The notes: a model not told the origin generated them from the letters alone. Positions 2,164-64,000 are shown, counted from the stretch's first letter. The stretch is DNA of 64,000 nt from an uncultured delta proteobacterium (GCA_963828255.1 CAWHDZ010000023.1:23090-87089), one strand, 5' to 3'. Numbers and translations are program-made.

Positions 2164-2215
2164 GGTTGTAGGCTAGATAGCGCCTTCAGTTTTTCGCCGC
2201 CACGTCGTACATGGG

Positions 2216-6827: not shown

Positions 6828-8272
6828 GCCGCCCCCACCGCTCCAGGACCGGGACGGCCCAGCTTCACCCCCTCGGCGCGCAGCGCGGAGGAGACGCGCA
6901 CGGCCAGGTCGGCTCCGGGGCCGGCCACGCGGTAGACCGCCCCGGTGGCGTCGAGGCTCACCAGATCGGCCGCGGTGCCCGGGCCGCCGGTGCGAATCAG
7001 GATCTCCCGGACCAGCGCCTGGTCCTCGGAGGAGTCCACCGAGAGCTCGAAGCGGGCCGCGGAGGCGAGACCGGGGAGGCGGGTGGGCAGGATCAAGGTG
7101 GCCAGGTGGGGGACGAGCACCCGCCGGCCCGACGCGTCCTCGACCTCGACGTCGAGGAGCCCGACCGCGCGCACGATCCCCGCCGTGGCGCCAATCTCGG
7201 CGACGTGGCCGGTGCGGTAGACCCTCCCCAGGAGGCGCGGCAACCCGGCGGCCACGCTGGCCAGCACGGGCGCCGCCGCCAGCCCCACGGCCAGCAGGGC
7301 GGCGTTCCCCAGGTTCGCGAGCATGCCCTCGTCGCTCCCGGTGAGGACCGGCGCGGCGAAGACGGCAGCCACGATGACGAGGGCGATGCGCAGGAGCTGC
7401 CCGACGGGCACGGCCAGCTCGGCCGGCATCCAGCGGAGATGGGTCTCCCCGGCCGCCACGCTCCCGAAGAAGAGCCGGACCGCGCGCAGGCCGAGCACGA
7501 GGAGCGCGCCGGCCACGATGGCCGCGATGGTGGCCGGGATGGCGCCGCCCACCCGGGCCAGCGTGTTCGCGGCCGGTCCGAGGACCACCTTGCCGAGGTG
7601 GACCCCGGCGCCTCGGGTGAAGGGGAAGAGGGAGAGGGCGAAGACGATCCATGCGTAGGCGATGACGATCTGGAGCACCACGCGCCCCACCCGCACGCCC
7701 ACGGCGAGCGCCCCGGCCACCCCCTCCGGGCTCACCAGCTCGACGCCGCGCAGCCGGAGCGCCGGGGCGCGCCGCCTGCGCTCCCGGATCGTCGCCTCCA
7801 CGCCCCGGTCGAGGTCGCCGACCTTGCGGAGGAGCAGGAAGGCAACCAGTCCCGAGAGGACGAGGAGGGAGAAGTGGAAGACCACCTCGGCGATGCGCGC
7901 CCTCCGCCGCTCGACACGCAGCGCCCGGTCCACGTCGGCGGCGGCGGAGCGGGAGAGCTCCTCTATCCCCGGGAGCCCGGCGGCGGCGACGTCCTCGGGA
8001 CCGAGCTCGAGGACCACCACCTCGCCGACGCGGATCGACGCCGAGTCGCCCTGCAGCTCGACCACCGCGCCGCCGGTGGGGCCCGCCTCCATGGCGTCGG
8101 CGAGGGCCTTGCTCGCCGCGCTGGCGCGGGGCGCCACCTCGACGCCGCCGCGCGGCGCACGGAGGGTGAGAACCGGGGCGTCCCGCAGGGTCACGTCGGC
8201 GCCGGCCGGGGCAGGGGGCGGAGCGGCCTCGGCGAGCACCGGCAGCAGGGCGAGGAGGAGCGCCACGATCAC
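6824..8272 (-). CDS. Mechanosensitive ion channel (MscS-like) with periplasmic N-terminal domain
   Basis: Signal peptide VIVALLLALLPVLAEA; TM helices followed by YRTGHVAEIG..AGIVRAVGLL..VLVPH, which resembles the MscS beta domain. Start position approximate. Confidence 0.75.
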   Translation of the reverse strand: MIVALLLALLPVLAEAAPPPAPAGADVTLRDAPVLTLRAPRGGVEVAPRASAASKALADAMEAGPTGGAVVELQGDSASIRVGEVVVLELGPEDVAAAGLPGIEELSRSAAADVDRALRVERRRARIAEVVFHFSLLVLSGLVAFLLLRKVGDLDRGVEATIRERRRRAPALRLRGVELVSPEGVAGALAVGVRVGRVVLQIVIAYAWIVFALSLFPFTRGAGVHLGKVVLGPAANTLARVGGAIPATIAAIVAGALLVLGLRAVRLFFGSVAAGETHLRWMPAELAVPVGQLLRIALVIVAAVFAAPVLTGSDEGMLANLGNAALLAVGLAAAPVLASVAAGLPRLLGRVYRTGHVAEIGATAGIVRAVGLLDVEVEDASGRRVLVPHLATLILPTRLPGLASAARFELSVDSSEDQALVREILIRTGGPGTAADLVSLDATGAVYRVAGPGADLAVRVSSALRAEGVKLGRPGPGAVGAA

Positions 8273-30170: not shown

Positions 30171-30266
30171 CGGCGGGACAGGGGAATCGGACCCCCCAGG
30201 AGCGCCTCTCGGCACCCCTCACCGGTTTTGAAGACCGGGCCCGGCACCAGCCTGGGACGTCCCGCC
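30171..30266 (-). tRNA. selC: tRNA-Sec (anticodon UCA)
   Basis: 8-bp acceptor stem GGCGGGAC/GTCCCGCC with G discriminator; anticodon arm CCGGT-CTTCAAA-ACCGG; 9-bp variable arm with GAGA loop; 5-bp T-stem. CCA is not encoded. Confidence 0.93.
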
Positions 30267-50560: not shown

Positions 50561-50637
50561 GGTGAGGTAGCTCAGTCGGCTAGAGCGAGGGTCTCATAAT
50601 CCCTAGGTCGGGAGTTCGATTCTCCCCCTCACCACCA
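50561..50637 (+). tRNA. tRNA with CAT anticodon, probably elongator tRNA-Met; integration site
   Basis: Acceptor GGTGAGG/CCTCACC, TAGCTCAG D-arm, CTCATAA loop, TTCGATT T-loop, encoded CCA. G1-C72 is paired, so it is not the initiator; Ile2 is not fully excluded. Confidence 0.93.
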
Positions 50638-50684
50638 GTAATTCCAGCAGGTTAGCAGCACAAATAGGCGAGCGCGCCGCAGGT

Positions 50685-50704
50685 CGGGTACAATACCGGG
50701 TACA
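50685..50704 (+). repeat. Left arm-type repeat pair CGGGTACA x2 (12-bp period)
   Basis: CGGGTACA at 50685 and 50697. Confidence 0.75.
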
Positions 50705-50743
50705 CCGACGCGCGCTGCTCCCTAACCGGGCTGGAGGCAAATC

Positions 50744-51922
50744 ATGGCGACGTTCGTGAAGGTGACGGGCAAGCGGGGCGTCCGCTGGATGGCGGTCGTC
50801 CGGAAGGCCGGCCGGAAGGCCAGGAAGAAGACCTTCGACCTGAAGGGGCAGGCGGTGACGTGGGCCCGGGGGGTCGAGGGGGATGCCGGATGGGCTCAGG
50901 CGCTCGGCACGCCGGGCGCGGGCATGACGCTCGCGGCGCTCGCGAAGCAGTACCAGGAGGCGGGGCTCGGCCGCGACCAGCGGGTCCAGTTCTGGGTCGA
51001 GCAGCTCGGGACGCGGAAGCTCCCCGACGTCCTGCCCGGCGACATCGAGGCCGCGCTCGACTACTACAGCAGCGGCAAGGCGGAGGTCTACGTCGGGCGG
51101 GGCAAGAGCCGGCCCCGGGTCAACGGCACGAAGCGGGGCCCCGCGTCCCGGAACCGGATGCGCTCCCAGCTCTCCAGCATCTTCCGCTGGGCCATGTCGA
51201 AGCAGCTCTTCAACACGAACCCCGTCGCCACGGTGGCGAAGGCGAAGGAGCCGAAGGGGCGCGTCCGCTTCCTCTCCGACGACGAGGCCGACCGGCTGCT
51301 CGCGTCCGCCCGGAAGTTCGTGGTCTCGCAGCGCGAGCGCCAGGAGGAGAAGGTCCGCCTCCGGATCGAGCGCCGCACGGCGCGTGGGCTTCCGGTGAAC
51401 GAGGACCGGCCCGTGAAGCCGCTGTGGGAGAAGCTGCCGCTCCTCGTGATGATGGCGCTCGCCACCGGGGCCCGCGCGAGCGAGCTGACCGAGAAGGTCC
51501 GCTGGGAGCGCATCGACTGGTCCGAGCGGAAGGTCCAGATCGACGACACGAAGAACACCGAGTCGCGCGTGCTCATCCTCCCGGTGGCAGTCATCAAGGA
51601 GATGATGAAGCACCGGCAGCCGACCGGGCTCGTCTTCGGCCGGCCCGAGGACCCGGAGAGCCCGTTCACGGTGAAGAAGCACTGGCTCGCGGCGGTGAAG
51701 GATGCCGGCATCGAGAACTTCCGGTTCCACGACTGCCGGCACACGGCGGCGAGCTGGATGATCAGCGCAGGGGAGGGGCTCTACCAGACCGGGCAGGTGC
51801 TCGGGCACAAGAGCCCGCAGTCCACGGCGCGCTACGCTCACCTCTCGGTGGAGGCGAAGAAGGCTGCCGTGGACCGCGTGATGACGTCGAAGCGGCTCGG
51901 CGGGAGCCCGGACTCGAAGTGA
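50744..51922 (+). CDS. int: Tyrosine recombinase/integrase
   Basis: RBS GGAGG; catalytic R (TGARASE), K (TKN), HxxR (FHDCRH), H (LGH) and Y (ARYAHL) all intact. Confidence 0.95.
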   Translation: MATFVKVTGKRGVRWMAVVRKAGRKARKKTFDLKGQAVTWARGVEGDAGWAQALGTPGAGMTLAALAKQYQEAGLGRDQRVQFWVEQLGTRKLPDVLPGDIEAALDYYSSGKAEVYVGRGKSRPRVNGTKRGPASRNRMRSQLSSIFRWAMSKQLFNTNPVATVAKAKEPKGRVRFLSDDEADRLLASARKFVVSQRERQEEKVRLRIERRTARGLPVNEDRPVKPLWEKLPLLVMMALATGARASELTEKVRWERIDWSERKVQIDDTKNTESRVLILPVAVIKEMMKHRQPTGLVFGRPEDPESPFTVKKHWLAAVKDAGIENFRFHDCRHTAASWMISAGEGLYQTGQVLGHKSPQSTARYAHLSVEAKKAAVDRVMTSKRLGGSPDSK

Positions 51923-52102
51923 TGGAGCTGCTGCCCGTCATCGCCGGGCCCTTGCGCTCGTGGGTGACGGTCCAGTAGTATCGCTGTCGAAACGGCTGGC
52001 ATCCTCATCTGCCTCGCGCGGAGCCCGCGACAGAAATCGGCCCCCTCACTGGCAACGAAGTAGCCTGAAAGACGGCAGCCAGTGGCAGTTCGAGGCCGGT
52101 CA

Positions 52103-52148
52103 GAGCCTCGACGACCCCAACCCGGGGACGTCGGGGCTCTTCGCATTT
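52103..52148 (+). terminator. Terminator-like hairpin in the leader of the xis/rep operon
   Basis: GAGCCTCGACG-A-CCCC / GGGG-A-CGTCGGGGCTC stem followed by TTCGCATTT (weak U-tract). Confidence 0.55.
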
Positions 52149-52186
52149 CAGGCCCCCGACGACCCCCATGCACTGCGGAGGTTGTC

Positions 52187-52429
52187 GTGAGCACTACCAG
52201 CACCCAGACAGGCGAGATCGTCGTCCAGGGCAAGCGCCTGATCGACTACGACCGCGCCGCCGCGATGCTCGGGCTGAAGCCGGCTTCACTCTCGACCGGC
52301 ATCTCGCGCGGGCAGTACGAGCTGACGCGCTACTTCGCGGGGCGGAGGCCCCGGTTCGACGTCGCGGAGATCGAGAAGCTCATCCTCTCGAAGTCCACGC
52401 CGGCCGGGCAGCGCAGGCGGAAGCACTAG
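52187..52429 (+). CDS. Excisionase/AlpA-like winged-HTH protein
   Basis: RBS GGAGG and GTG start; LIDYDRAAAMLGLKPASL...GRRPRFDVAEIEKLI pattern of HTH_17/Xis. Confidence 0.8.
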   Translation: MSTTSTQTGEIVVQGKRLIDYDRAAAMLGLKPASLSTGISRGQYELTRYFAGRRPRFDVAEIEKLILSKSTPAGQRRRKH

Positions 52430-52505
52430 GCGTCGCGCCGTGGCCGCTCACGTCGGCGGCCGGCCACCGCGCGTCACCTCGTCGCCGGCAGTGAAGGCAC
52501 TCGTC

Positions 52506-52811
52506 ATGTCGTTCCAGAATGTCCCCCGCGCAAGCGGGCCCGTCGTGGAGAAAGCCATCGTGCGGCCCACCGCGCCGCAACCGGCCCCGAAGAAGGTTCA
52601 CCCGTTCGCGAAGCTGGCCGAGTCGAGGGCCCGCGTGTCGTTCGCGATGAAGGCGGGCAGCACCATCACCGGCACCGTCGTCGAGTTCAACGCGAACCTC
52701 GTGCGGCTCGTGGAGGTCCGGGTGCGCCACCGCGACGAGCCGCCCCGGTCGGCAGCCTGGGTGCTCGTCGATTCCACGGCGGCAGCCTTCGTCGAGGAGG
52801 TGGCCCCGTGA
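52506..52811 (+). CDS. Putative Hfq/LSm-fold protein
   Basis: PFAKLAESRARVSFAMKAGSTITGTVVEFNANLVRL aligns by eye with the Hfq Sm1 motif. Start may be upstream (GTG 52440). Confidence 0.55.
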   Translation: MSFQNVPRASGPVVEKAIVRPTAPQPAPKKVHPFAKLAESRARVSFAMKAGSTITGTVVEFNANLVRLVEVRVRHRDEPPRSAAWVLVDSTAAAFVEEVAP

Positions 52812-53521
52812 GCGCGTTCATAAGGGTCGAAGGCAAGCTGATCCCGGTCGCGCAGGTGCGTGGCGTCGAGGAACGCTCGGGCGGGGCAGCCGTCCGCGTG
52901 CTGCACAGCGACGGCTACACCGAGGGGGAGTTCGCGGAGGTCGTCGAGACCATTCCGAACACCAACCCCAACCTCGTGCTCCTGGAGACCGTCGAGGAGC
53001 CGGATGGCACGACGTCGCTGGAGGAGTGGCCGGTCATCGCGTGGCGCGTCGAGCAGCTCACGGGTGGCCTCGCGGCGGGCGTCCTCGACTACGCCACCAC
53101 CGTGACCCCGATCACCGGACGGAGTCTCGGAGGCCACGACTTCGCGCTCCTCGACCGGAGAACGGGGCACGTCGTCCAGCACAGCAGCGCCCCGGACGGA
53201 GAGCGGTGGTTCCGGACCAGGGAGTCGTTCATCGGCTCGCTGGACGACGAGCAGGGCGCGCCCGGGGCCGTCCAGGTGAAGGCGGACGCGCCCGCGCCCC
53301 GGCCGGTGCTGGTGAGTCAGCAGCCGGCCCGCGACCTCGACCGGAAGTTCCATTCCGCCGCACAGCGGTGCCTGGAGGCAGGAGGCCCCGAGCTGGTTTC
53401 GCGGGTGCTCCGGAAGTTCCGGGTGGCGAAGGTGTCGGACGTCCCGCCCTCCGCCTACGAGACCGCGCGGACCGCGTTCGTCGTCGCCACGAAGAAGGCT
53501 GAGCGGAAGGGGGCGCGATGA
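52808..53521 (+). CDS. Hypothetical protein
   Basis: RBS GGAGG, GTGA coupling, high GC3. Confidence 0.75.
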   Translation: MSAFIRVEGKLIPVAQVRGVEERSGGAAVRVLHSDGYTEGEFAEVVETIPNTNPNLVLLETVEEPDGTTSLEEWPVIAWRVEQLTGGLAAGVLDYATTVTPITGRSLGGHDFALLDRRTGHVVQHSSAPDGERWFRTRESFIGSLDDEQGAPGAVQVKADAPAPRPVLVSQQPARDLDRKFHSAAQRCLEAGGPELVSRVLRKFRVAKVSDVPPSAYETARTAFVVATKKAERKGAR

Positions 53522-54022
53522 CCTCCCACCTCTACACGCGCGGTGAGCGAGGAGGAGATCCGGTTCCGCGTTCTCGCCGCCTCCGCCCCGCCTCCCGGCA
53601 CCGTCGCGGTCTTCTCCCGCCAGCTCGGGGGCCCACCGTTCGTCTACACGTCCCCGGTCGTGCAGCTCCTCACCATCGAGGTCTACGGCGAGGGGCAGAG
53701 CGTCATCCGCACCGAGCCCGTCTGCTTCGGTGACGACGAGGGCCCGGCCGGCGCGTGGCCGAACTATCTCGGCATGGCCCCGAGCGCGACTGAGGGCGAG
53801 CGCGTCTTCGTCGACATCGCGGCAGCGTGCATCTACGGGGCCCCGCTCGGGCGCTCGCGCGGCCCGTTCGAGAGCCGCTCGGAGCTGCTGGAGCGGACCA
53901 TGAGCGCGAAGGTCCCCTGGCGCATCCAGAAGTCCATCAAGTGCTGGAGGCGCGGCGACGCGAAGGGGGCGGAGCGCCTCTACGCGGAGCAGAACGCGAC
54001 CCCCGAGGAGACCGTGAACTGA
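53518..54022 (+). CDS. Hypothetical protein (ORF 53543-54022; coupled ATG 53518 is out of frame by one base)
   Basis: High-GC3 ORF; removing one C near 53526 would join the ATGA-coupled start to it. Confidence 0.65.
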
Positions 54023-54030
54023 AAAGAGGA

Positions 54031-54062
54031 GGCCCCGGCGCGCTCGTCTTCGCGCCGGGGCC
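54031..54062. terminator. Perfect 12-bp hairpin upstream of the rep gene
   Basis: GGCCCCGGCGCG-N8-CGCGCCGGGGCC with AAAAG nearby on both sides; could terminate minus-strand transcription. Confidence 0.5.
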
Positions 54063-54092
54063 AAAAGTTCACCTTCACTCAGAGAAGGCACC

Positions 54093-57000
54093 TTGGATTC
54101 TATCACCTTCCTCCGCCTGCCCGCATCCTCCTACTGGAACTCGGAGGAGAACCGCTACATCCACCTTCGCGGAAGGAAGCTCCTCGACCCGACGCTGACG
54201 AAGGTGATCTCGGGGCACGCGAAGGGGAAGCGGTTCATCCCGGTCGAGCGCCCCTACACGAGCGTCGAGGCACTCTCGATGATCGCGGAGGAGATCCAGG
54301 CGGGCGACTGCGGGCTCGTCCACGCGCGGGTGAGCGAGGCCGGCCGCGCCGTCCTGGCGAAGAAGGGATACGTCGAGGCCCGAGCGCGCCCGAAGATCAT
54401 CAAGCACTCGGGAAAGGTGCTGCCCGGCCACCTGGAGGACCAGCCGTCCCGGCTCCTCGCCATCGACTTCGACGGTGCCGAGCTGCCCTGGCCTTTCGAC
54501 CCGTTCGCGCCCGAGGAGTCGGTGCGCCAGCTCATCACCGCCGCAGGTCTCGACGGCGCGGCCGTGCTCTGGCAGCTCACCGCGAGCCAGCAGCCCCGTG
54601 CCGGGGCTCCCGTCCGGCTCCGGTTCTACTGCATCACCGACAAGGGCCTGCGCGCGCCACAGCGCACACGGCTCCTCTCCATCATCTCGCAGCGCATCAC
54701 CGAGAAGCTCGGGATCGACCCGAGGATCGACCCCGCCGTCGCCCGGCGCGTCCAGTTCATCTACATCGCGCCGCCCGAGATCGAGGGCGGGGTGGACCTC
54801 ATCCCGCGCCGGTTCGGCATCATCGAGGGCGGCGAGGTCGCCATCGACCTCGACCAGCTCAAGGGCCCGGCCGTGCCCGACCGCGCCGCACGCATCGCCG
54901 GCCGTGGTGGCGTGCGGCTCCGGGACATCCCCGAGGGGGAAGAGATCCTGGAGTACCTGCTCCCGAACGAGCAGGCCGCACTGCACCCCGGCATGGTGAA
55001 CGCTGCCTACCACCTGCGGAGGATGGAGCCGGCGGAGATGGTCGAGTCCATCTACGAGTACGTCGAGGGCATCATCGACTGGTCCGCCCCAAAGCCGCGC
55101 CGCACGAGCCGGGAGGAGCTGCGGAAGGAGGTCGAGGACATCGTCGGCTGGGCGGTCTCCTGCACCGACGAGCACATCGTCCGGGGCATCGAGCCTGCCT
55201 TCCCGGTGCAGGAGGTGGTCTCCCCCGCTGAAGCGGAGCTGGCGGCCGAGCGGGCCGTCCTGGGGGGCCTTCAGAAGCCCGGCCGCACCATCATCCGGCT
55301 GCCTGCCGGCGTGGGGAAGACCGAGCAGGTGCTTCGCGCGCTCGACCTCTTCGGCTACCGCGCCCACGCCTTCGTCCCCACCCACGCGCAGGCGGAGGAG
55401 ATGGCGACCCGCGCCCGGATGATGGGCATGACGGCGCAGGTGATGAAGGGGCGCGAGACCCTGAACGGTGCGATGGAACCGCTCTGCAAGAAGCTCCCGG
55501 CGATTCAGCACCTCCGGGAGCAGGGATTTCAGGCGGTCTCGCAGTACCTCTGCGAGAGCCCGACCAAGACGTCCATCCTGGAGTTCGTGGACGACGACGG
55601 CGAGGTCGTGGAGGAGGTCGTCGAGTCACGCAGCGGCGGCGGCGAGGTCTGCCCCTACGCGCAGGACTGCGATTACTTCACGCAGCACGAGACCGACGCG
55701 CAGCTCGTCGTCTTCCAGCACGCCCACCTCGCCATCCCCGAGAGCACGCTGGTGGCGCGGATGCGGAAGCCGGACGTCGTCGTCATCGACGAAGACCCGC
55801 TGAAGGCGCTCCACGTGAAGGGGAAGGTGCCGAAGGCCCGCCTGCCTGCCGCCCTCTCACCGCTCGCCGCCGGCATCACCGACGTGGAGTTCTACGACCT
55901 GGAGGCAGTGCGGGCTCTGCGGGACCGCGTGGACGGGGTGCGCCCCAGCATGGACGCGGCGCAGACGCTCGCCGCTGCGCAGCGGACGCGCCCCTCCGTG
56001 ACCCTCGCCGCCGAGATGGTCGCGACCTGCATCGAGCAGGGGCACGACGACCTGCCCGACGTGCGTGTCGGAGCCGGCGTCGTCGAGTTCTCCTTCGTGC
56101 GGAAGATCGCGAGGGCCGGGCGGCACACCATCCTGCTCGACGCCACGCTCCGCCCGACCATCGCGGATGCCTACTTCCCGAACGCGCGCATCGAAGAGGT
56201 GCGCCTCGACGACAACATCGACGGCTACGTCGTGGCTGACCGGACCTTCTCGAAGACCGCGATGAAGGAGGAGCGCGCCTACGTTGGCGTGGCCGACGAG
56301 CTGCCCGAGCAGCTCCGCCACCACAAGACGCTGGGCATCGTGACGAGCAAGGCCCACGCCGACCAGCTCGCAGCGTTCGACGTCCTGCACTACGGGGCAC
56401 TGCGCGGGTCGGACACGCTGCGCAAGTGCGACTTCGGGCTCGTGGTGGGCCGGATGCAGCCGCCGCTGGAGGAGGTCGTGGCGCTCGCCCGTGCGCTCTT
56501 CCCGGGCCGGCCGTTCCGCGACGCGCGCCTCGTCGAGCGCGCGGCCGGCTACCGGATGGCGGACGGCACGCGGAAGGGGGTCGTGGACCTCTACGCGACC
56601 TGCGAGGGCGGGGACGCGGAGCTGCTCGGGGAGGTCATGGGGACGCTTCGAGAGGACGAGCTGCTGCAAGGGCTCGGGCGGTTCCGCGCGGTGCGGAAGC
56701 CGTACCGGGTGCCGGTGATGATTCTCGGGAGGTTGCCCGTGGACGTGACGGTACGTGAAGTGCTGAAGGTCTCCGACGTGGAGGAGATGAACGTGATGCT
56801 CGCCGGCCTGAAGGCGGGGGACGTGTTCCCGCTCGTGCCCCGGCTGCTCGTCGCCGCAGGGGTCTTCAAGACCGAGAAGACGGCGGAACGGTGGCTCGGG
56901 CGGGGGAGGGGAGAGGCGAACGCGAGGAGGCTGGTGGAGCTGCTCGCGATACGCACTGAGAGTCCTATTTATGAGAGAGGCTCTAATGTGTATCGACCCG

Positions 57001-57533
57001 CAGATAACGCGCTGCGTCGTCCGGCTATCGACCCCCGGATTTCAGACGGGGATGGACGGGAGTCGACGAGAGCGGGTGAAGGGGTCGGGGGGACACCGAA
57101 TATCGACCCCTCGTGGCCTATGTATAGGAGTAGGGATGGGGGTCGATCCGTTTCTGGACCGGCCGCTCGCGCGACCAAGCCTCGAACCGGCCCCCCGGAC
57201 GCCCCTGGAACCGCCCCCCGGGCCGTCCTGCACCCCGTCCCGGAGCCGGGCGAGGCGCGGGTGGCGCTCGTGGCCTTCCGGCTCGACCATCACCACCGTC
57301 GCCTGCCGGCCGGGGTCCGCGCGCTCGCGCTCGTGAACGCAGTGGACCTCGCGGACGCGGACTACCAGCTCGGGAAGTTTCTGCGGAGAGTGAAGGTCCG
57401 CGACAAGGTCGCCGGCATCTGGTCCGCGCCCCCGGTGCTGCTCGCCGGGCCACCGGAAGACGACGACCCCGAACTCCCTGAGCGGCCCGAACCAGTACCC
57501 TCTTCCACGCATCGCCTTGTGAAATCAGTGTGA
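54093..57533 (+). CDS. Replication protein: primase(AEP)-like N-terminus + SF2-like helicase
   Basis: LLAIDFDG (DxD); Walker A LPAGVGKT; Walker B VVIDED; ILLDAT (motif III); LLQGLGRFR (motif VI); Cys cluster between the Walker motifs. TTG start with AGAAGG upstream. Confidence 0.75.
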   Translation: MDSITFLRLPASSYWNSEENRYIHLRGRKLLDPTLTKVISGHAKGKRFIPVERPYTSVEALSMIAEEIQAGDCGLVHARVSEAGRAVLAKKGYVEARARPKIIKHSGKVLPGHLEDQPSRLLAIDFDGAELPWPFDPFAPEESVRQLITAAGLDGAAVLWQLTASQQPRAGAPVRLRFYCITDKGLRAPQRTRLLSIISQRITEKLGIDPRIDPAVARRVQFIYIAPPEIEGGVDLIPRRFGIIEGGEVAIDLDQLKGPAVPDRAARIAGRGGVRLRDIPEGEEILEYLLPNEQAALHPGMVNAAYHLRRMEPAEMVESIYEYVEGIIDWSAPKPRRTSREELRKEVEDIVGWAVSCTDEHIVRGIEPAFPVQEVVSPAEAELAAERAVLGGLQKPGRTIIRLPAGVGKTEQVLRALDLFGYRAHAFVPTHAQAEEMATRARMMGMTAQVMKGRETLNGAMEPLCKKLPAIQHLREQGFQAVSQYLCESPTKTSILEFVDDDGEVVEEVVESRSGGGEVCPYAQDCDYFTQHETDAQLVVFQHAHLAIPESTLVARMRKPDVVVIDEDPLKALHVKGKVPKARLPAALSPLAAGITDVEFYDLEAVRALRDRVDGVRPSMDAAQTLAAAQRTRPSVTLAAEMVATCIEQGHDDLPDVRVGAGVVEFSFVRKIARAGRHTILLDATLRPTIADAYFPNARIEEVRLDDNIDGYVVADRTFSKTAMKEERAYVGVADELPEQLRHHKTLGIVTSKAHADQLAAFDVLHYGALRGSDTLRKCDFGLVVGRMQPPLEEVVALARALFPGRPFRDARLVERAAGYRMADGTRKGVVDLYATCEGGDAELLGEVMGTLREDELLQGLGRFRAVRKPYRVPVMILGRLPVDVTVREVLKVSDVEEMNVMLAGLKAGDVFPLVPRLLVAAGVFKTEKTAERWLGRGRGEANARRLVELLAIRTESPIYERGSNVYRPADNALRRPAIDPRISDGDGRESTRAGEGVGGTPNIDPSWPMYRSRDGGRSVSGPAARATKPRTGPPDAPGTAPRAVLHPVPEPGEARVALVAFRLDHHHRRLPAGVRALALVNAVDLADADYQLGKFLRRVKVRDKVAGIWSAPPVLLAGPPEDDDPELPERPEPVPSSTHRLVKSV
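56991..57147. repeat. Cluster of direct and inverted TATCGACCC repeats inside the rep gene (candidate origin)
   Basis: TATCGACCC at 56991, 57026 and 57101; inverted copies at 57138-57147 (GGGGGTCGAT), 57058-57067 and 57081-57088 (degenerate). Confidence 0.65.
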
Positions 57534-57597
57534 GCCGGGGTTTTAGAATCCCTGGACTCAACGTAAACTGTTGAAAGTGCTGAACGGAGGCTGAAAA

Positions 57598-58122
57598 ATG
57601 GATCTCTCGCGACTGAGCATGGCCGAGCTGGAGCGGCTCGTGGATGAGGAGCTGGCGGAGCTGAACCCGCGCCAGGGGAGCTACGCGCTGTTGCGCACCA
57701 CCGGGGTCATCCCCGCCACGGCAGCCCGGCTCGCCGGCTACTCGCTCTCGCAGAATCCGGATGCGCTGGAGAAGCGCACGCTGCGCGCTCGTGCCGCCTA
57801 CACGGAGAAGCTGAACCGCACGGCGGACATCAACGTCTACTGGCTGCGCACGAAGTTCCTGGCGCTCCACGACGACGCGATGGAGCACGGCGACCGTGGC
57901 ACGGCCCGCGCCTGCCTCACCGAGATCGGCAAGCTCGCGGCGCTCTACCCCGAGCAGCGCCTCCGCCTCCAGGTGGAGACCGCGCAGACATCACTCGCGG
58001 AAGTCACCGAGGAGGAGTGGGCACTCGCCTCGCGCCTCACCCACGAGGTTCGCCAGCAGCTCCCGCCGGCCACCGTGGACATCTCCCCCACCACCCAGGA
58101 GGAGGAAACCGATGCCGCGTAA
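57598..58122 (+). CDS. terS: Terminase small subunit-like protein
   Basis: RBS GGAGG; ATAARLAGYS HTH motif; C-terminal ARACLTEIGKLAALY resembles the TerS ALELLGK..G.F motif; upstream of TerL. Confidence 0.75.
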   Translation: MDLSRLSMAELERLVDEELAELNPRQGSYALLRTTGVIPATAARLAGYSLSQNPDALEKRTLRARAAYTEKLNRTADINVYWLRTKFLALHDDAMEHGDRGTARACLTEIGKLAALYPEQRLRLQVETAQTSLAEVTEEEWALASRLTHEVRQQLPPATVDISPTTQEEETDAA

Positions 58123-58582
58123 CCTCGTCATCAACCCCGACCAGCTCTACCTGCGCCGGCTCGCCGCCCGTGCGCTCGACCTCATGTACGCGAGCAACGG
58201 CATCGAGGGCATCGTCGTCCGCTTCGCCCCGGACGACCCCACGCAAGCGTTCCCGGGCACCGAGCCGGGCGAGTTCATCTTCAGCCCCGACTTCCGGAGC
58301 CGCTCCCCACGCACCGTCGCCCACGTCTTCCTGCTCGAAGGCACGCTGGCGCGCGTCCTCGTGCCGGTCATCGACGACGTCATCCGCTCGAACCACCTCC
58401 GCGAGTTCAACGCTCGCGAGCTGGGGTTCCGCCAGCAAGGCGAGCCCGACGTGGATGTCGAGGTGGACCTCGTCGATGTCATCGCGGAGGAGGGGGAGAT
58501 GCTCCGGACCCGGCCCCAGCGGGTGACGGAGCGGATGCGCCAGCCCGCCTTCAAGACCTTCCGCGCCTACAATGGAGACTGA
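58112..58582 (+). CDS. Hypothetical protein between terS and terL
   Basis: Strong RBS AGGAGG, high GC3. Confidence 0.75.
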   Translation: MPRNLVINPDQLYLRRLAARALDLMYASNGIEGIVVRFAPDDPTQAFPGTEPGEFIFSPDFRSRSPRTVAHVFLLEGTLARVLVPVIDDVIRSNHLREFNARELGFRQQGEPDVDVEVDLVDVIAEEGEMLRTRPQRVTERMRQPAFKTFRAYNGD

Positions 58583-58584
58583 CA

Positions 58585-60033
58585 GTGAACCGTGAACGAC
58601 TCTCCGCCGTCATCCGTGCCGCGCCCTGGGTGCCCCAGCCCGGGCCCCAACTCGAAGCCTTCACGAGCCCCGCCGACCAGCTCCTCTACGGGGGACAGGC
58701 CGGCGGCGGCAAAACATCCCTCGCCATCGGCCTCGCGCTCACCAAACACCGGAAGACCCTCTTCATCCGGCGCGAAGCCACCCAGCTCGTAGCCGTGGCC
58801 GACGAGATCGCGAACATCCTGGGCACACGCGACGGGTTCAACGGGACGCTCGGCATCTGGCGCTTGCCCGGCGGGCGCTCCATCCGGCTCGGAGGCATCC
58901 CGAACGCAGGCGACGAGACCAAGTTCCAGGGCGCGGACCACGACCTCAAGGTCTTCGACGAGGCGGCAAATCTAGAGGAGGGGAGCGTCCGCTTCCTCCT
59001 GGGCTGGCTCCGCTCGACAGACCGTTCCATCCGCTGCCGCGCGCTCTTCTGCTCGAACCCGCCCGCCTCCGCGTCCGGGGAATGGCTGATCCGCTGGTGG
59101 GCCCCCTGGCTCGACCCAGACTTCCCGACCCCCGCCTCGCCCGGCGAGCTGCGCTTCGTCGCGATGATCCCGGGGGAAGGGGAGCGGTGGGTGGACGGCC
59201 CCGAGCCCTTCACCGTCCGTGGAGAGACCATCCGGCCGCTCTCGCGGTCCTTTATCCCCGCGAAAGTCACTGACAACAGATTCCTGGGGGCTGACTACAT
59301 CCGCCAGCTCTCCGCCCTTCCGGAACCTCTCCGTAGCCAGCTCTTGCACGGGTCGTTTACTGCCGGAAGAAGTGACGATGAATGGCAGGTGTGTCCATCC
59401 GCCCACGTGAAAGCCGCGATGGACAGGTGGAAGCCGAGCGACACCCCAGGTGAAATCACCTCCCTCGGAGTGGATCCCTCGCGTGGTGGCGACGAAACGA
59501 TCATCGCCATTCGCAGATCGAACTGGCGCTTCGACCCCCTCATCGCCGTGCCGCCAGCCGTCGCCTCGACCGGCGGCGGGGTCACGAAGAAGATCCTGGA
59601 CGTCTGCGGCGACAGTGCCCCCGTTCACGTGGACCCAATCGGCGTGGGGGCGAGCGTGATCGACCACCTCGAAGCGTGGATTCACCGCCGATGCGTGCCT
59701 GTGAATTTCGCCTCACAGTCGAAGGAAGCCGACTTCACTGGCAATTTGAAATTCGTGAACCGTCGCGCGGAGTGCTGGTGGCGGATGCGGGAAATTCTCG
59801 AGCCCTCCCGCGCCATCAAGGTCGCGCTCCCCAGAGACCAGCGGCTCTTCGCGGACCTCTGCGCGCCCCGCTACAGGCTCACGAGCCGGGGCATCCAGAT
59901 CGAGGGCAAGGAGGAGATCATTCGGAGGCTCGGGAGGAGTCCCGACCGTGGCGATGCCGTAGTGCTGGCCTCGATTCGCACACCCATCATCCGCGACGTC
60001 CGCTTCACCACTCACCGTGCATGGGAGGGATGA
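58585..60033 (+). CDS. terL: Terminase large subunit
   Basis: PQPGPQ Q-motif; Walker A YGGQAGGGKT; Walker B VFDEA; motif III CSNP; RNase H-like nuclease acidic residues GVDPSRGGDET, VDPIGVG and SPDRGDA. Confidence 0.93.
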   Translation: MNRERLSAVIRAAPWVPQPGPQLEAFTSPADQLLYGGQAGGGKTSLAIGLALTKHRKTLFIRREATQLVAVADEIANILGTRDGFNGTLGIWRLPGGRSIRLGGIPNAGDETKFQGADHDLKVFDEAANLEEGSVRFLLGWLRSTDRSIRCRALFCSNPPASASGEWLIRWWAPWLDPDFPTPASPGELRFVAMIPGEGERWVDGPEPFTVRGETIRPLSRSFIPAKVTDNRFLGADYIRQLSALPEPLRSQLLHGSFTAGRSDDEWQVCPSAHVKAAMDRWKPSDTPGEITSLGVDPSRGGDETIIAIRRSNWRFDPLIAVPPAVASTGGGVTKKILDVCGDSAPVHVDPIGVGASVIDHLEAWIHRRCVPVNFASQSKEADFTGNLKFVNRRAECWWRMREILEPSRAIKVALPRDQRLFADLCAPRYRLTSRGIQIEGKEEIIRRLGRSPDRGDAVVLASIRTPIIRDVRFTTHRAWEG

Positions 60034-60230
60034 GCATGACCGATGACAAGAAGTCACCGCCCGAATTGAAGCCCGGCACCCGTGTCCCACCGAAGCCGCC
60101 GCCTTCCTGGAATGAGCACGTGCGCCGGATCGTGGAGCGCGATGCCCAAGGCGCGCAGGACTCCTTCGGCTTCCGCTCCTTCCGCGCCGATGGCTCCGTC
60201 GTCCCTCCACCCCGGCGCAAGGGGCGATGA
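60030..60230 (+). CDS. Small hypothetical protein
   Basis: RBS GGGAGG; ATGA overlap with the terL stop. Confidence 0.55.
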   Translation: MSMTDDKKSPPELKPGTRVPPKPPPSWNEHVRRIVERDAQGAQDSFGFRSFRADGSVVPPPRRKGR

Positions 60231-60455
60231 GTGAGCGTCATCTCCAACATCAAGGCACGCCCCGTCGTCCACGCGAGGCCCATCTCGGCTGAAGCTCAAC
60301 GCCTATTCGCCGCCGAGGCGTCCATCGCGGCGGCGTCCCAGGATCTCGTCCGGGCGAGGGAAGCTGTGGATGGGGACTACCGCCGCAAGCTGATGCAGGC
60401 GGAGCACCTCCTACAGCAGCTCCGCATCGCCATGCTCGACGAGGCCCACGGCTGA
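60231..60455 (+). CDS. Small helical hypothetical protein
   Basis: Abuts the previous stop; high GC3. Confidence 0.6.
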   Translation: MSVISNIKARPVVHARPISAEAQRLFAAEASIAAASQDLVRAREAVDGDYRRKLMQAEHLLQQLRIAMLDEAHG

Positions 60456-60458
60456 CCG

Positions 60459-60827
60459 ATGGGCGGCGAAGGCGCACGGCTCTGCTCGGGCCCGCCCCCG
60501 AGCGCCCCGCCGCCGGAGCTGGTGGCGCGTGCACTTCTCGATCTCCGCCTCCACGCCGACCACCCCGTCCTTCTCCACCTGCGCATCGTCGAGCCCCGCC
60601 TGTGGCTGCGCATGGAGCGGCTCCAGGCCCGGGACCAGTACCTCCAGTTCCGCCAGGACGGCTTCACCGTTGGCGAAACCTTGCGCATGGTCGCGAAGCG
60701 GTTCCAGCGCGACCAGCGCAGCATCCGCAGATGGGTCCTCGACCGGAAGAAAGTGGCAAGTCCAGCGAGAGGTGTCACCGCCGGTTGTGGTCTCGTCACA
60801 CCATGCACCGTGACCGAGACCGATTGA
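60459..60827 (+). CDS. Hypothetical protein with C-terminal HTH-like motif
   Basis: GFTVGETLRMVAKRFQRDQRSIRRWV fits an HTH pattern. Confidence 0.6.
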   Translation: MGGEGARLCSGPPPSAPPPELVARALLDLRLHADHPVLLHLRIVEPRLWLRMERLQARDQYLQFRQDGFTVGETLRMVAKRFQRDQRSIRRWVLDRKKVASPARGVTAGCGLVTPCTVTETD

Positions 60828-61120
60828 TGGGCGAGTTCGCCTCCCACAACCGGCACCGCAACCGTCAGCTCCGAAAGATCGCCGTCGAGGTTGTCGCGGA
60901 GGCCCGTACCTCCGGTCAGCCCATCACGAGCGTCGGCGCGCTCCTCGAATCCCGCATCGCTGGCGCGGAGATGGTGGACGGGCTGGCCGTGGAAGCCGAC
61001 GAGTTCCGCCGCTCCCTCCGCTCCCGGATCCGCGCCCGCCGCCGCCTCGCCGCTCTCCTCGTGGCATCCGCCGTCTGGTTCACCCTGCTCGGGCTCGCCT
61101 GGGCGCTTCTCCGAAAGTGA
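60827..61120 (+). CDS. Small protein with C-terminal TM helix
   Basis: TGATG coupling; LAALLVASAVWFTLLGLAWALL hydrophobic segment. Confidence 0.6.
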   Translation: MGEFASHNRHRNRQLRKIAVEVVAEARTSGQPITSVGALLESRIAGAEMVDGLAVEADEFRRSLRSRIRARRRLAALLVASAVWFTLLGLAWALLRK

Positions 61121-61128
61121 GGTCACGC

Positions 61129-61851
61129 ATGGCCCGAAGTCTCACGCGCAGTGACAGGAAGGATCTCGGAGCCGAGTTCGAGATGGTGGAGGAGATGCTC
61201 CCCGGTGCTCCGCCGCCCGACCCGCTCCCGCCGTCGCCCGAAGACGAGTTCGCCATCGTCGAACCCGCCCCCGCGCCGTCGCCTCCCCCGGCGCTGCCCA
61301 CCGAGCAGGAGATCGACGACCTGAAGGCTCTCCTCGCGAAGAAGCGCACCCGCAGGGGAGAGCTGGTCGATGAGCAGGCAGCGGTCGAGGACCGGCTGTC
61401 GCTCGTCGCGGAGCAGCTCGCCGTGGCGCAGCAGGAGGCGCGCCGCCGTCGTCACGACCAGCTCATCGAGCCATCCGAGGCGCGCGAGGGGGCAGCCCTG
61501 GAGGCCCGGGAAACCGTGAAGCGGCTGTACGAGGAGGAATCGGAGCTGCTCGACTCGAAATCCGCGTTCAGCCCCGCCGCCGACGACCTCGACCGGCAGA
61601 TCGTCCAGCTCGCCCGCCAAATCGACTCAGCGAAGGTGGCCCGGGTGAAGGAGAAGCTGGAGGCGGGCCGCGCCCACCGTTCCGATGTGCTGCTCCAGGC
61701 GATGAGCGAGGCGTTGGTGCTCTGGGAGTTGACCGGGGCCCTCGCGCCCGCACCATTGGACTTCGGCCCTTTGCTGAACATCACCATTGGTCACGACAAG
61801 TCGATCACTGAAGCCGCCCGACTGCTTCGGGCCCAGGAAGGACTGCTCTAG
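61129..61851 (+). CDS. Coiled-coil hypothetical protein
   Basis: RBS GAGGT; Pro-rich N-terminus followed by long heptad-rich helices. Confidence 0.75.
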   Translation: MARSLTRSDRKDLGAEFEMVEEMLPGAPPPDPLPPSPEDEFAIVEPAPAPSPPPALPTEQEIDDLKALLAKKRTRRGELVDEQAAVEDRLSLVAEQLAVAQQEARRRRHDQLIEPSEAREGAALEARETVKRLYEEESELLDSKSAFSPAADDLDRQIVQLARQIDSAKVARVKEKLEAGRAHRSDVLLQAMSEALVLWELTGALAPAPLDFGPLLNITIGHDKSITEAARLLRAQEGLL

Positions 61852-62349
61852 ATGACCCCCCGTGAACACGCCTTGAAGCTCGCTGCACAGTTCGGTCTCT
61901 CCCCGGAGGACACAGCCGACGTCGTCAGCCGCGCCGCGACCATGCAGAAGATGACGGTGGCCGAACTCCAGGCGGAGCAGCAGTCCATCATCGCCGCCCC
62001 CTTCGCCCCCGGCGCTCGCCGTGGCCCCGTTCATGCCGCGCTCAACGCGATGGCGACATTCGCCCTCGCCACGACCCGCGCCGAGAACCTCCCACCGGGG
62101 CCGGGCCGGGAGCAGGTGCTCGTTGGGGCCGGTCTCGCGCAGCCTTCCGATCCGGTGCCCGACAAGCGCAAGGTCGAGGTCTCGAAGTGGCACATCGACG
62201 TGAAGCGCGTGGACGAGCGCAGGGCTGCCCTGCGGAAGACCATCGACAACAGGACGCTACCTTCGGAAGTTCGGGCAGCGGCACGCGAGGAGATGGGGAA
62301 CCTCCGCACGCCCGCCCCGGCCCCTCCACCTCCCGTCATTCACGATTAG
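61852..62349 (+). CDS. Hypothetical protein
   Basis: Abuts the upstream stop; AGGA upstream; high GC3. Confidence 0.7.
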   Translation: MTPREHALKLAAQFGLSPEDTADVVSRAATMQKMTVAELQAEQQSIIAAPFAPGARRGPVHAALNAMATFALATTRAENLPPGPGREQVLVGAGLAQPSDPVPDKRKVEVSKWHIDVKRVDERRAALRKTIDNRTLPSEVRAAAREEMGNLRTPAPAPPPPVIHD

Positions 62350-62358
62350 CAAATAGAA

Positions 62359-62388
62359 GCGCCGCCAGCTTTGGCGAGCTGGCGGCGC
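62359..62388 (-). terminator. Perfect 12-bp hairpin with a T-rich tail on the minus strand
   Basis: GCGCCGCCAGCT-N6-AGCTGGCGGCGC preceded by AAATAGAA. Confidence 0.55.
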
Positions 62389-62442
62389 GACACCACGGAT
62401 GCTGAGACAGGGATAGCTCGCATCCTAGAGACCGAGGACGCG

Positions 62443-62676
62443 ATGCGCAATTCCATCGGCCCTGTCCCCAAGACCCGCGAGCAGCTCGCCGTCTACTTCG
62501 ACCAACGTGCCGCCCGCTTCGAGCAGCTCGGAGCTGTCCGCATAATGTACTTCTTCCTCGACCTCGCCGCAGACCTACGCTTCGGGCTCACCACACCGAA
62601 GGCGGCGAAGCAGAAGGCGGCGACGTGGATCGAGTACGCGGGGTGCTCCATTCCCGTCGAGGAGCGCCACCCGTGA
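62443..62676 (+). CDS. Small hypothetical protein
   Basis: RBS GAGGA and ATG; high GC3. Confidence 0.6.
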   Translation: MRNSIGPVPKTREQLAVYFDQRAARFEQLGAVRIMYFFLDLAADLRFGLTTPKAAKQKAATWIEYAGCSIPVEERHP

Positions 62677-62681
62677 CCGGG

Positions 62682-63014
62682 CTAGACGCGGTTGATGTGG
62701 GGGTTCTGGCCCGGGGCGTAGATGCGCGTGGTCCCGGTCAGCTCGATGTTCCACTCCCGAGCCGCGTCGATGTAGGGCGCGAGGAGTTCCTCTGTCTTGG
62801 TCATGCGGCATTGGCCCACGAGCTTCTCGAAAGCCCGAGCCGCCCACTTCTGGACCGGGGCGCGCACGGCGCGCCGGTAGAACGCGACCTGTTCGAGCAT
62901 GAACGGGTCCGCGTTGTAGTGCTCGCGAACGTAGGCATCCACCAGCTCCACGAACCCCTCCGCCATCTTCCTCCGGTCCCTCTCCGTGTCCTCCATGCGC
63001 GGAAGGGTAATCAC
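62682..63014 (-). CDS. Small hypothetical protein (only clear minus-strand gene of the element)
   Basis: Protein-like composition and high GC3; start uncertain. Confidence 0.6.
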   Translation of the reverse strand: MITLPRMEDTERDRRKMAEGFVELVDAYVREHYNADPFMLEQVAFYRRAVRAPVQKWAARAFEKLVGQCRMTKTEELLAPYIDAAREWNIELTGTTRIYAPGQNPHINRV

Positions 63015-63159
63015 CCGTTCCAGCTTTGCAACCCTCGCCCCCGGTGGGACAACCCCCCACGAACACCTTGTAGGCCCTGAATCGTGGGCCCCGCCGGGGG
63101 CGTTTCATCGTGTCTGCCAAGCGGCTTGACGGGATCGGCAGGCGACTTAGGTTGCCGGG

Positions 63160-63432
63160 ATGAAGCGCGTGACCAGGATCTACGTCGTGGACCGGAAGAC
63201 GGTGGAGACTGCCGCCCAGGCAGGCATCCACATCGACCCCCATGACCCTCACGCCATCGCGAAGCTGCGCCGCGAGGTCGCTCGGTTCCAGGCGGGGATC
63301 GAGAAGGGTCTCACGTGGCGCGCCGACCCCGAGACCCGTGGTGATCCCGACTGCGACCACGGGGACGATCCGAACCTTGGTGCCTGCTGTCGGTGCGGGA
63401 AGCTGCTCAATCAGCTCGCGCGCAAGCCGTAG
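63160..63432 (+). CDS. Small Cys-containing hypothetical protein, possibly leaderless
   Basis: TTGACG-N16-TAGGTT ends 6 nt before the ATG; CDH...CCRC cluster. Confidence 0.55.
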   Translation: MKRVTRIYVVDRKTVETAAQAGIHIDPHDPHAIAKLRREVARFQAGIEKGLTWRADPETRGDPDCDHGDDPNLGACCRCGKLLNQLARKP

Positions 63433-63468
63433 GGTGGGCGCGCAGACCCGCCTGCTACCGTCCCCGGC

Positions 63469-63666
63469 GTGAGCCATCGCCGTCGTCCCCTGCCACCCGT
63501 GGAGCCGCTCCACTGCCCCGGGAGCTGGCTCCCAGAGCCTCACCACCAGCCCGGCGAGCTGGTGGCCTGCGCCATCTGCGGCAAGCCCCTGGTGGTCGTC
63601 CCGCCGCCCGAGACCCACGACCCGTGGCCCGGCTCGACGGCGGCGCGGGTGGAGCCGCACGGGTAG
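63469..63666 (+). CDS. Possible small zinc-binding protein
   Basis: HCPGS...CAICG; short, weak RBS. Confidence 0.35.
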   Translation: MSHRRRPLPPVEPLHCPGSWLPEPHHQPGELVACAICGKPLVVVPPPETHDPWPGSTAARVEPHG

Positions 63667-63847
63667 TCCGCAGAGCGCGCCAGGAAGGGCAGGGGAGGGC
63701 GCTCGGCAGCCGGCGGGGCATCGGGGCGTCTGTGTGCTCCTGCGCGTCCTGGCGGGCCCAGGGATTCGTTCTGGCCCCCATCCCCGGGTCATGTTCGAGG
63801 TGTGCCCGGCTCGCCCTCGACCTAGGGATTATCGGTCCCTCCGAAAC

Positions 63848-63867
63848 CGGGTACAAAAGCGGGTACA
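63848..63867 (+). repeat. Right arm-type repeat pair CGGGTACA x2 (12-bp period)
   Basis: CGGGTACA at 63848 and 63860; same spacing and orientation as the pair at 50685. Confidence 0.75.
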
Positions 63868-64000
63868 GTCAGCCGCTAGATGTCACCAGTTCACGTCGGT
63901 TCGCGTCGAAGCTGGTCAAAGCATATCGAAGCGTGCTATCAACGGTTTCAGCGCGCTCCGTAGGGATCCTGCGGGGTTACTGAGAGTGCGGGCGGACGAC

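Follow-up and report, generated by a model that had tools for sequence, protein, structure and literature searches.

A tRNA-Met-adjacent island with terminase genes in an uncultured delta proteobacterium: possibly two phage-satellite-like elements in tandem

Introduction

We describe a genomic island in an uncultured delta proteobacterium (assembly GCA_963828255.1, here G000) on contig CAWHDZ010000023.1 (C23). The window, that is the whole stretch of 64,000 nucleotides (nt) that was analysed, corresponds to C23:23090-87089 of this 87,089-bp contig. The island occupies the window from a tRNA-Met gene at 50.6 kb, past an integrase, a large predicted replication protein (Rep) and genes for a probable small and a clear large terminase subunit (TerS and TerL), to base 64000. 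This base is also the last of C23; the stretch stops there because the assembly does, and the right end lies outside view. A preliminary description of this DNA, made from the sequence alone, had proposed a closed 13.2-kb satellite of a new type, equipped with a complete terminase and no capsid. We tentatively favour a different account, in which an island of at least 22.5 kb, inserted beside tRNA-Met, is distributed over two contigs, with the flagged stretch as its leftmost ~13 kb, and is likely composed of two phage-satellite-like elements in tandem.

Throughout, part A denotes the window from 50.6 to ~63.8 kb (C23) and part B denotes C24:1-~9130; G-, L-, C- and P-numbers designate genomes, loci, contigs and proteins in the analysis. 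The G000 assembly comprises 40 contigs and 4.31 Mb, with a marker completeness of 99.2% and a contamination of 6.6%.

Results

A compact run of genes beside tRNA-Met

The features of the island are collected in Table 1. Between 50.6 and 64.0 kb the G+C content is ~69%, and coding frames are marked by third-position G+C (GC3) values of 0.8-0.97. The 77-nt tRNA-Met gene is identical in 4/4 relatives examined, and a scan against Rfam returned nothing besides the tRNA. An intact tyrosine integrase gene starts 107 nt past the tRNA gene, and several further points of the preliminary description were borne out as well: nearly all genes share one strand, the sole minus-strand frame lying at 62682-63104, and apart from int, rep and terL every called gene falls below 250 amino acids (aa). 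The xis-like gene described earlier corresponds to an open reading frame (ORF) for which a single weak match, to phrog_66, suggests a role as excisionase or regulator; its true start is probably internal.

Neither the ORFs of 123, 237 and 159 aa nor the small ORFs 3' of TerL had a match in Pfam, PHROG, NCBIfam or PADLOC, and PADLOC returned no defence match apart from a helicase-type match in Rep. By eye, the ~97-aa ORF has a C-terminal hydrophobic helix. The hairpin that lies between the plus-strand run of ORFs and the sole minus-strand ORF looks like a two-way terminator separating two transcription units.

Table 1. Features of the island on C23 (window coordinates) and on C24 (contig coordinates, prefixed C24). 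HTH, helix-turn-helix; SF2, helicase superfamily 2.
Feature	Position	Strand	Evidence or remark
tRNA-Met (CAT)	50561..50637	+	ARAGORN; Rfam RF00005, 70 bits; left border of the island
Paired heptamer GGGTACA-N5-GGGTACA	50686..50704	+	between tRNA and int
Tyrosine integrase, 392 aa	50744..51922	+	PF00589 3.6e-22; phrog_1 1.5e-51
xis-like/HTH ORF	52082..52429	+	phrog_66 (excisionase and transcriptional regulator) 1.5e-5 only; no Pfam match
Three ORFs, 123, 237, 159 aa	52440..54022	+	GC3 frame pattern supports coding
Rep, 1146 aa	54093..57533	+	predicted fusion of primase-polymerase and Fe-S SF2 (DinG/XPB-like) helicase
Probable small terminase subunit, 174 aa (ORF174)	57598..58122	+	inferred
Conserved 156-aa ORF (ORF156) between TerS and TerL	58112..58582	+	no family match
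Large terminase subunit TerL, 482 aa, full length	58585..60033	+	phrog_979 3e-30; phrog_2 3e-27
Small ORFs 3' of TerL: 74, 122, ~97, 244, 165 aa	60231..62349	+	no family match
12-pair GC-rich hairpin, terminator-like	62359..62388		terminator scan
140-aa open frame	62682..63104	-	GC3 0.85; no family match
90-aa ORF, Cys-rich C-terminus	63160..63432	+	GC3 0.84; no family match
12-nt direct copy of tRNA 3' end, CCTCACCACCAG	63538..63549	+	longest direct match to the tRNA within the element; weak candidate for the junction at the right of A
Inverted partial copy of tRNA anticodon arm	63820..63834	-	15-nt match to 50597-50611
Paired GGGTACA motif, second copy	63849..63867	+	133 nt before contig end
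Small HTH ORF, 5'-cut	C24 very start		xis-like by eye; no family match
Primase-helicase, 777 aa	C24 (B)		PF13481 4.9e-28; phrog_6012, phrog_16593
TerS of B	C24 (B)		phrog_57 2.4e-21
HK97-type capsid gene in two frames	C24 (B)		PF25209 4.7e-21 and 6.4e-8; phrog_4523 5e-51
Paired GGGTACA motif, third copy	C24:9018-9035	-	near outer end of B

Inserted DNA continues on a second contig

The gene 5' of tRNA-Met was found in 12 of the 13 other genomes of the genus. At this locus G010, G013, G001 and G004, the four relatives examined, carry an identical tRNA-Met followed, within 10-100 nt and in the same orientation, by the sequence that in G000 has its start at C24:9129-9155; the flank is 79-92% identical, and synteny runs onward for at least 10 kb in all four. 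Because tRNA-Met directly precedes the C24:~9155 sequence in each of these relatives, C24:1-~9130 is also inserted DNA, and the chromosomal flank resumes at ~C24:9130-9155. The two assembled parts give the island a length of at least 13.4 + 9.1 = 22.5 kb, plus a C23-C24 gap of undefined length.

The case for a closed 13.2-kb element in the preliminary description is undercut, since it relied on an inverted repeat and on a window edge that coincides with the end of C23. A continuation past 64000 with structural genes had been named there as fatal to the proposal, and such a continuation exists in part: at least 9.1 kb of further inserted DNA follows, with a capsid gene, but this DNA may belong to a separate element, B.

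Close relatives of B stand alone elsewhere. Homologs of its helicase, 60-69% identical, occur in 6 of the 400 other genomes of the phylum that were searched, all from the same bacterial family. In G010 (L215), a 9.5-kb insert at tRNA-Cys is bounded by a 31-nt direct repeat (30/31 identical) and encodes an integrase, a primase-helicase whose 335-aa helicase half is 67% identical to that of B, a TerS (phrog_83, 7.8e-34) and a major head protein (phrog_10, 4.8e-60), with no ORF of TerL or portal size. Two further elements, at tRNA-Arg and tRNA-SeC in G382 (L213 and L214), each encode an integrase along with a primase-helicase and a protease-capsid fusion, and one of the two (L213) yielded a TerS. 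Among the B-type copies, identity in the helicase half is 60-69%, yet their TerS and capsid genes come from different PHROG families. B thus belongs to a recurrent, self-contained family of compact tRNA-integrated elements that resemble phage-inducible chromosomal islands (PICIs), the 9.5-kb insert being the one with mapped ends. Most members have an integrase and a TerS, and TerL and portal are lacking. Islands of the cos type among the Staphylococcus aureus pathogenicity islands (SaPIs) reportedly carry a capsid-protein homolog, Ccm. Since related elements carry int at one end, just 5' of the position of the xis-like ORF, the integrase of B would most simply be placed in the unassembled gap.

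One other contig end was considered as a gap filler and dropped. At C30:204739-206571 a different tyrosine integrase gene runs to the contig end, accompanied by a small ORF and an xis-like HTH ORF; the region resembles another integrated element cut by an assembly break. Its integrase is 36% identical over only 75 aa to the integrase of A and points to the contig end; C30 itself is chromosomal, with a length of 206 kb.

A separate observation concerns tRNA-SeC, the gene that a B-type element adjoins in G382: the window has a tRNA-SeC gene of its own at 30171-30266, on the minus strand.

A phage-type terminase of the BPP-1 clade

TerL of part A is 45-48% identical, over 93-96% of its length, to the TerL proteins of Limnohabitans phage DC33, Acidovorax phage AP1 and Bordetella phage BPP-1, and 65-70% identical to metagenomic TerL proteins of 475-538 aa. 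It retains every invariant column of a 14-sequence alignment. Two ORFs are candidates for TerS, ORF174 and ORF156, of which ORF174 appears the better. It lies 5' of TerL, and homologs 64-67% identical to it occur on two contigs that also hold Rep or TerL homologs. The homolog in L113 scores E 8e-5 on a TerS profile grown from bbp26 of BPP-1, and the C-terminal 18 aa of ORF174 match the C-terminus of the L106 TerS (10/18, E 2e-5), a protein that reaches 1e-13 on the bbp26-grown profile and adjoins a 66%-identical TerL. ORF156 is 47% identical over 133 aa to ORFs immediately 5' of TerL in L106 and L107. The ORF at 57896-58582 found no phage match by tblastn.

We infer that ORF174 is probably TerS. 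Because TerL is full length with all invariant columns and ORF174 shares a TerS C-terminal motif, the terminase looks functional. The earlier claim of a TerS-like gene and a TerL gene with intact motifs accordingly stands for TerL, with the TerS half a probable assignment.

Scans with a TerL alignment reached best identities of 51% in genome contigs, 69% in metagenome contigs and 56% in viral contigs. At the loci recovered, the only other genes shared with A were homologs of TerS and ORF156 (in L106, L107, L113 and L114); an alignment of the TerS-like proteins found no match in viral contigs. The Rep-TerS-ORF156-TerL block is kept on at least two other contigs, both of which end in TerL or before it. 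A 9757-bp contig of a metagenome-assembled genome carries homologs of Rep, the TerS-like ORF and TerL under locus tags 1272, 1271 and 1269, and an 8132-bp contig holds a Rep homolog together with a TerS-like ORF. In all, genes of the block were found on only three short metagenomic contigs, and the 3' side of TerL is absent from every one. TerL was found in 0/400 other genomes of the phylum that were searched, and Rep in 0/60 genomes of relatives in a stricter first search.

A large predicted replication protein without a Pfam domain

The 1146-aa protein matched no sequence in Pfam, PHROG, NCBIfam or the PDB. An exhaustive search of 1.84 billion representatives recovered 598 relatives at E<=1e-3, most of those listed being 900-1200 aa long, and a word-indexed search of 5.8 billion proteins recovered one only. 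A Pfam scan of 20 relatives returned nothing in 19 and a sub-threshold DEAD match in one. As a single query, Rep found no relative in viral contigs or genome contigs, and a narrower alignment found no match in viral contigs.

Across a 40-sequence alignment D127 is invariant (D125 nearly so), as are G406 and K409 of a GxGKT motif and the cysteines at 465, 487, 520 and 526; further invariant columns are D566-E567 and Q859/R863/R865. We take this pattern to fit the DxD motif of an archaeo-eukaryotic primase followed by an SF2 helicase with an Fe-S insert. Residues 398-567 match PADLOC typeIV_DinG at 1.8e-6, weak profile matches point to motif I of XPB/RAD25, and the atlas neighbours of Rep fall into clusters with Prim-Pol, RepB_primase, ResIII or DEAD domains in some of their members. 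The large Rep/helicase gene of the preliminary description is present as an ORF, and its product may reasonably be read, from these motifs and with partial tool support, as a primase-polymerase/helicase replication protein. Its family (~1100 aa, 598 relatives, no Pfam domain) is large, undescribed and uncharacterised.

Borders and candidate integrase sites

Matching end repeats about 13.2 kb apart had been reported for part A. The segments 50597-50611 and 63820-63834 do match over 15 nt, but as an inverted and not a direct repeat. The match extends by eye to ~25/30 over the anticodon arm, and 15 nt was reached in 0/300 first-order Markov simulations; a chance origin is unlikely. The longest direct match to the tRNA, at 63538-63549, is of chance-level length, as direct matches of at least 12 nt arose in 40/300 simulations. 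No direct tRNA repeat of at least 14 nt, as a right attachment site (attR) would provide, occurs in any contig of the assembly. Among short matches at C24:8968-9125, AATCCCTA, CTCATAAT and CACCACCA (the last two spotted by eye) were considered as exact attachment (att) cores, but all are of chance size.

Another repeat is the better marker. With a relaxed pattern, the paired GGGTACA motif has exactly three sites in the 4.3-Mb assembly, and these mark only the left of A, the right of A and the outer end of B, a distribution that supports a tandem arrangement. The paired motifs are likely to be integrase arm-type sites.

Searches for head genes

Part A contains no PHROG or Pfam structural match except TerL, and when all window ORFs were compared with BPP-1, AP1 and DC33 by tblastn, TerL alone matched. 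A portal hidden Markov model (HMM), built from 65 portal ORFs adjoining TerL homologs, returned negative bit scores only on six-frame translations of C23:73001-87089 and C24:1-9500. The 244-aa ORF, the only one of near-capsid size after TerL, was modelled by AlphaFold2 (AF2) as a long helical hairpin and not an HK97 fold (predicted local distance difference test, pLDDT, 70); Foldseek against BFVD returned nothing at E<=0.001, just non-specific coiled-coil rows, and tblastn found no phage match. The earlier statement that neither a portal nor an HK97 capsid is encoded between 50.6 and 64.0 kb is in agreement with all of these searches, and no small ORF emerged as a hidden capsid or portal with the portal HMM or, for the 244-aa ORF, in fold modelling and Foldseek.

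Over all 40 contigs, PF05065 and PF04860 had 0 matches and PF25209 matched B only; the portal, major head and tail proteins of BPP-1, AP1 and DC33 found no tblastn match in the 40 contigs, the contig gap lying outside the reach of the search. PF03237 and PF03354 had 0 matches in the bin, a weak test in that both miss A's own TerL, and the search with PF12236 is uninformative, as this family matched no control genome. Among the 27+24 ORFs no PHROG match indicated P4-like genes (psu, sid, delta, alpha-type primase), which were not searched by name.

These results bear on the idea that A belongs to a complete prophage as its left arm, with the structural genes in the gap or in contigs outside the bin. 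The contig does end at 64000, and prophage regions are often lost from bins. Against this, 3.8 kb of small ORFs, an att-like site and a paired motif precede the end of C23, B follows on C24 and immediately adjoins the chromosomal flank, and the 40 contigs yielded no portal or capsid except that of B, the custom portal HMM having covered the island only. We regard a prophage arm as very unlikely.

Discussion

A possible tandem of two elements

In the tandem array that we tentatively favour, A would extend from the tRNA to ~63.5-63.9 kb and B from there across the gap to ~9.1 kb on C24, the two being probably separate units. Tandem satellites are known (PMC10085698). Since self-contained elements of the same kind as the C24 part form a family in relatives, a discrete A with TerS and TerL and no head genes is still a reasonable reading of the left part. 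We propose that upon infection by a helper A would excise via Int and Xis and replicate with its own Rep, that its TerS and TerL would package A DNA into procapsids and portals supplied by the helper (or partly by B), and that the resulting particles would take the helper's tails.

A number of observations weigh against this account. At the borders, neither A nor B nor the island as a whole showed a canonical direct repeat pairing a left attachment site (attL) with attR, and the 63820 site, being inverted, is unfit as half of an attL/attR pair; the right border of A is for these reasons a putative one. No overlap joins the end of C23 to any contig end, no integrase for B was found in assembled DNA, and no helper prophage is visible in the bin. 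The capsid gene of B, equivalent to the capsid portion of protease-capsid fusions, shows a change of frame near 7720-7773. For ORF174, a BPP-1-seeded iterative TerS profile gave only E 1.4, hhalign comparisons with TerS gave probabilities of 4.4% and 0.2%, neither Pfam (up to E 10) nor PHROG returned a match, and the AF2 model is all-helical (pLDDT 65) with no Foldseek match in the PDB. A third contig, of 6202 bp and bearing a partial TerL 87% identical to that of A (P0048), likewise ends in or before TerL. In L107, the closest TerL relative with enough 3' DNA (66% identical), a portal-like ORF starts ~130-220 nt after TerL, and a portal match was found at 55/96 TerL-homolog loci with at least 4 kb downstream. 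As TerL relatives run into a portal in this way, the terminase of A derives from ordinary phages and A could be a remnant. Nor does the conserved Rep-TerS-TerL block separate a satellite from a phage, since in BPP-1, too, the genes for primase, TerS and TerL lie near one another.

A possible deletion remnant of a temperate phage

Several of these points speak for the view that A was left by deletions in a temperate phage of the BPP-1 clade: int, rep and the terminase would have been kept, the genes for portal, capsid, tail and lysis would have gone, and with them the ability to move as a working element. Besides the portals that follow TerL in L107 and elsewhere, the gene order shared with BPP-1 and the lack of a clean att repeat bounding A, this view is favoured by the nearest TerL relatives, which lie on contigs of up to 35-44 kb, and by the absence of A's TerL and Rep from the phylum and relatives' genomes searched. 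The state of A argues otherwise. Its large genes are all intact with a good coding signal, no portal or capsid fragment was seen in any frame, and the 3.8 kb 3' of TerL are full of small intact-looking ORFs, not debris; int and Rep are only ~2 kb apart with no cI/cro module detected, and A adjoins another compact element of a recurrent satellite-like family. On balance we consider a remnant unlikely.

BPP-1-like temperate podophages (Rauchvirus; NC_005357) share with A a 45%-identical TerL and the order primase, small genes, TerS, TerL. In BPP-1, portal, protease, major head and tail genes lie within 1.4-9 kb after TerL, whereas none of them is found in the assembled island, and no gene of A other than TerL matches BPP-1, AP1 or DC33.

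A possible single composite element

Parts A and B could also form one composite element of at least ~23 kb, from tRNA-Met to ~9.1 kb on C24, that either resembles a capsid-forming PICI (cf-PICI) or has decayed, with TerS, TerL and capsid and without a portal. The left paired motif (plus strand) and the C24 paired motif (minus strand) are oriented towards one another, an arrangement that arm sites served by one integrase might have; a single integrase was assembled, and the two parts together hold TerS, TerL and a capsid protein. The island nevertheless has two each of xis-like ORFs and TerS genes, its two replication proteins are unrelated, and a third copy of the paired motif lies between A and B. 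TerL (BPP-1 clade) and capsid (phrog_4523 type) come from different phage lineages, the capsids of BPP-1, AP1 and DC33 matching nothing in G000, and in G010 and G382 elements of the B type occur by themselves, each with an integrase of its own. A single element seems to us unlikely.

With the tandem of two satellite-like elements retained as the preferred account, a more far-reaching version can be formulated, which we put forward as speculation with little chance of being right. A and B would be a cooperating minimal satellite pair, A supplying the packaging motor and B a capsid and its own TerS, in effect the two halves of a cf-PICI, each separately mobile and both still dependent on a helper for portal and tail. 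A would then be the first of a class with TerS and TerL only, replicated by an undescribed fusion of primase-polymerase and Fe-S helicase.

Comparison with known satellites

The configuration of A was unmatched among named satellites, in line with the preliminary description: a full-text literature search, which did not cover supplements, found no family with TerS and TerL only. Among the types of SatelliteFinder, TerL is listed as a core component for cf-PICI alone (PMC10085698), and the 11 core parts of cf-PICIs include capsid, protease, portal, head-tail adaptor and connector (PMC10085698, PMC10690885). Like A, cf-PICIs (Alqurainy et al., bioRxiv 10.1101/2022.09.08.507074; de Sousa et al. 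2023, PMC10085698) are integrated and carry int, a small regulator, a replication gene and their own TerS and TerL. They differ in having capsid, protease, portal and head-tail parts, all absent from A, and B offers a capsid domain only, frame-changed and without the protease part. Of the cf-PICI parts, TerL and a probable TerS were found in A; a capsid with protease and a portal or connector were found in neither part of the assembled island.

Classical PICIs and SaPIs (PMC5052747) resemble the parts of the island in plan, with a size of 9-15 kb, integration at tRNA or att sites, int, an xis/AlpA-like ORF, a primase-helicase and their own TerS. This plan fits B, except for an integrase, and its relatives in G010 and G382, with a capsid-protein gene in addition. 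A has int, a predicted replicase and the less firmly assigned xis and TerS, but also a TerL, which classical PICIs, as described there, are without; its Rep, of the ~1100-aa family, sets it further apart. The Streptomyces satellites MulchRoom and MiniFlayer (PMC10690885) resemble A in carrying TerS and TerL, yet they also have portal, major capsid, scaffold and head-tail adaptor and are described as being without key replication genes, the reverse of A. The archaeal SRCE satellites of spindle viruses (bioRxiv 10.1101/2025.02.15.638363) provide a conceptual parallel, with a packaging ATPase only as in A or a capsid only as in B; virus realm, proteins and hosts are unrelated in that account, and we claim no homology.

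The proposal of a capsid-less new satellite type is compatible with the gene content of A, while the inserted DNA runs on in C24 with a second TerS and an HK97-type capsid gene; the idea of a satellite with TerS and TerL only is interesting but unproven. A discrete and mobile A would represent a satellite equipped with a whole terminase and no head genes. A packaging motor alone could then serve as a hijacking module, and docking of a foreign TerL on a helper portal would become testable. If A is a remnant, the finding is ordinary. Two results are independent of this choice: the repeated occurrence, in this bacterial family, of related compact elements that sit at tRNA genes and carry primase-helicase, TerS and a capsid gene, and a large uncharacterised family of ~1100-aa replication proteins.

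Other variable regions

Two further regions showed differences among the relatives compared. In the closest relative (L020, G010:C106), tRNA-Met is separated from the upstream gene by ~2.5 kb of additional DNA at positions 1787-4237, with 69-74% identity to sequences on other G000 contigs. Comparison of synteny at the end of C24 and the start of C25 was uninformative as to whether contig numbering follows genome order. C25:1-3000 (L219) has no homolog in three genomes of the same genus, unlike the syntenic end of C24, and, lying at a contig break, is possibly another variable region.

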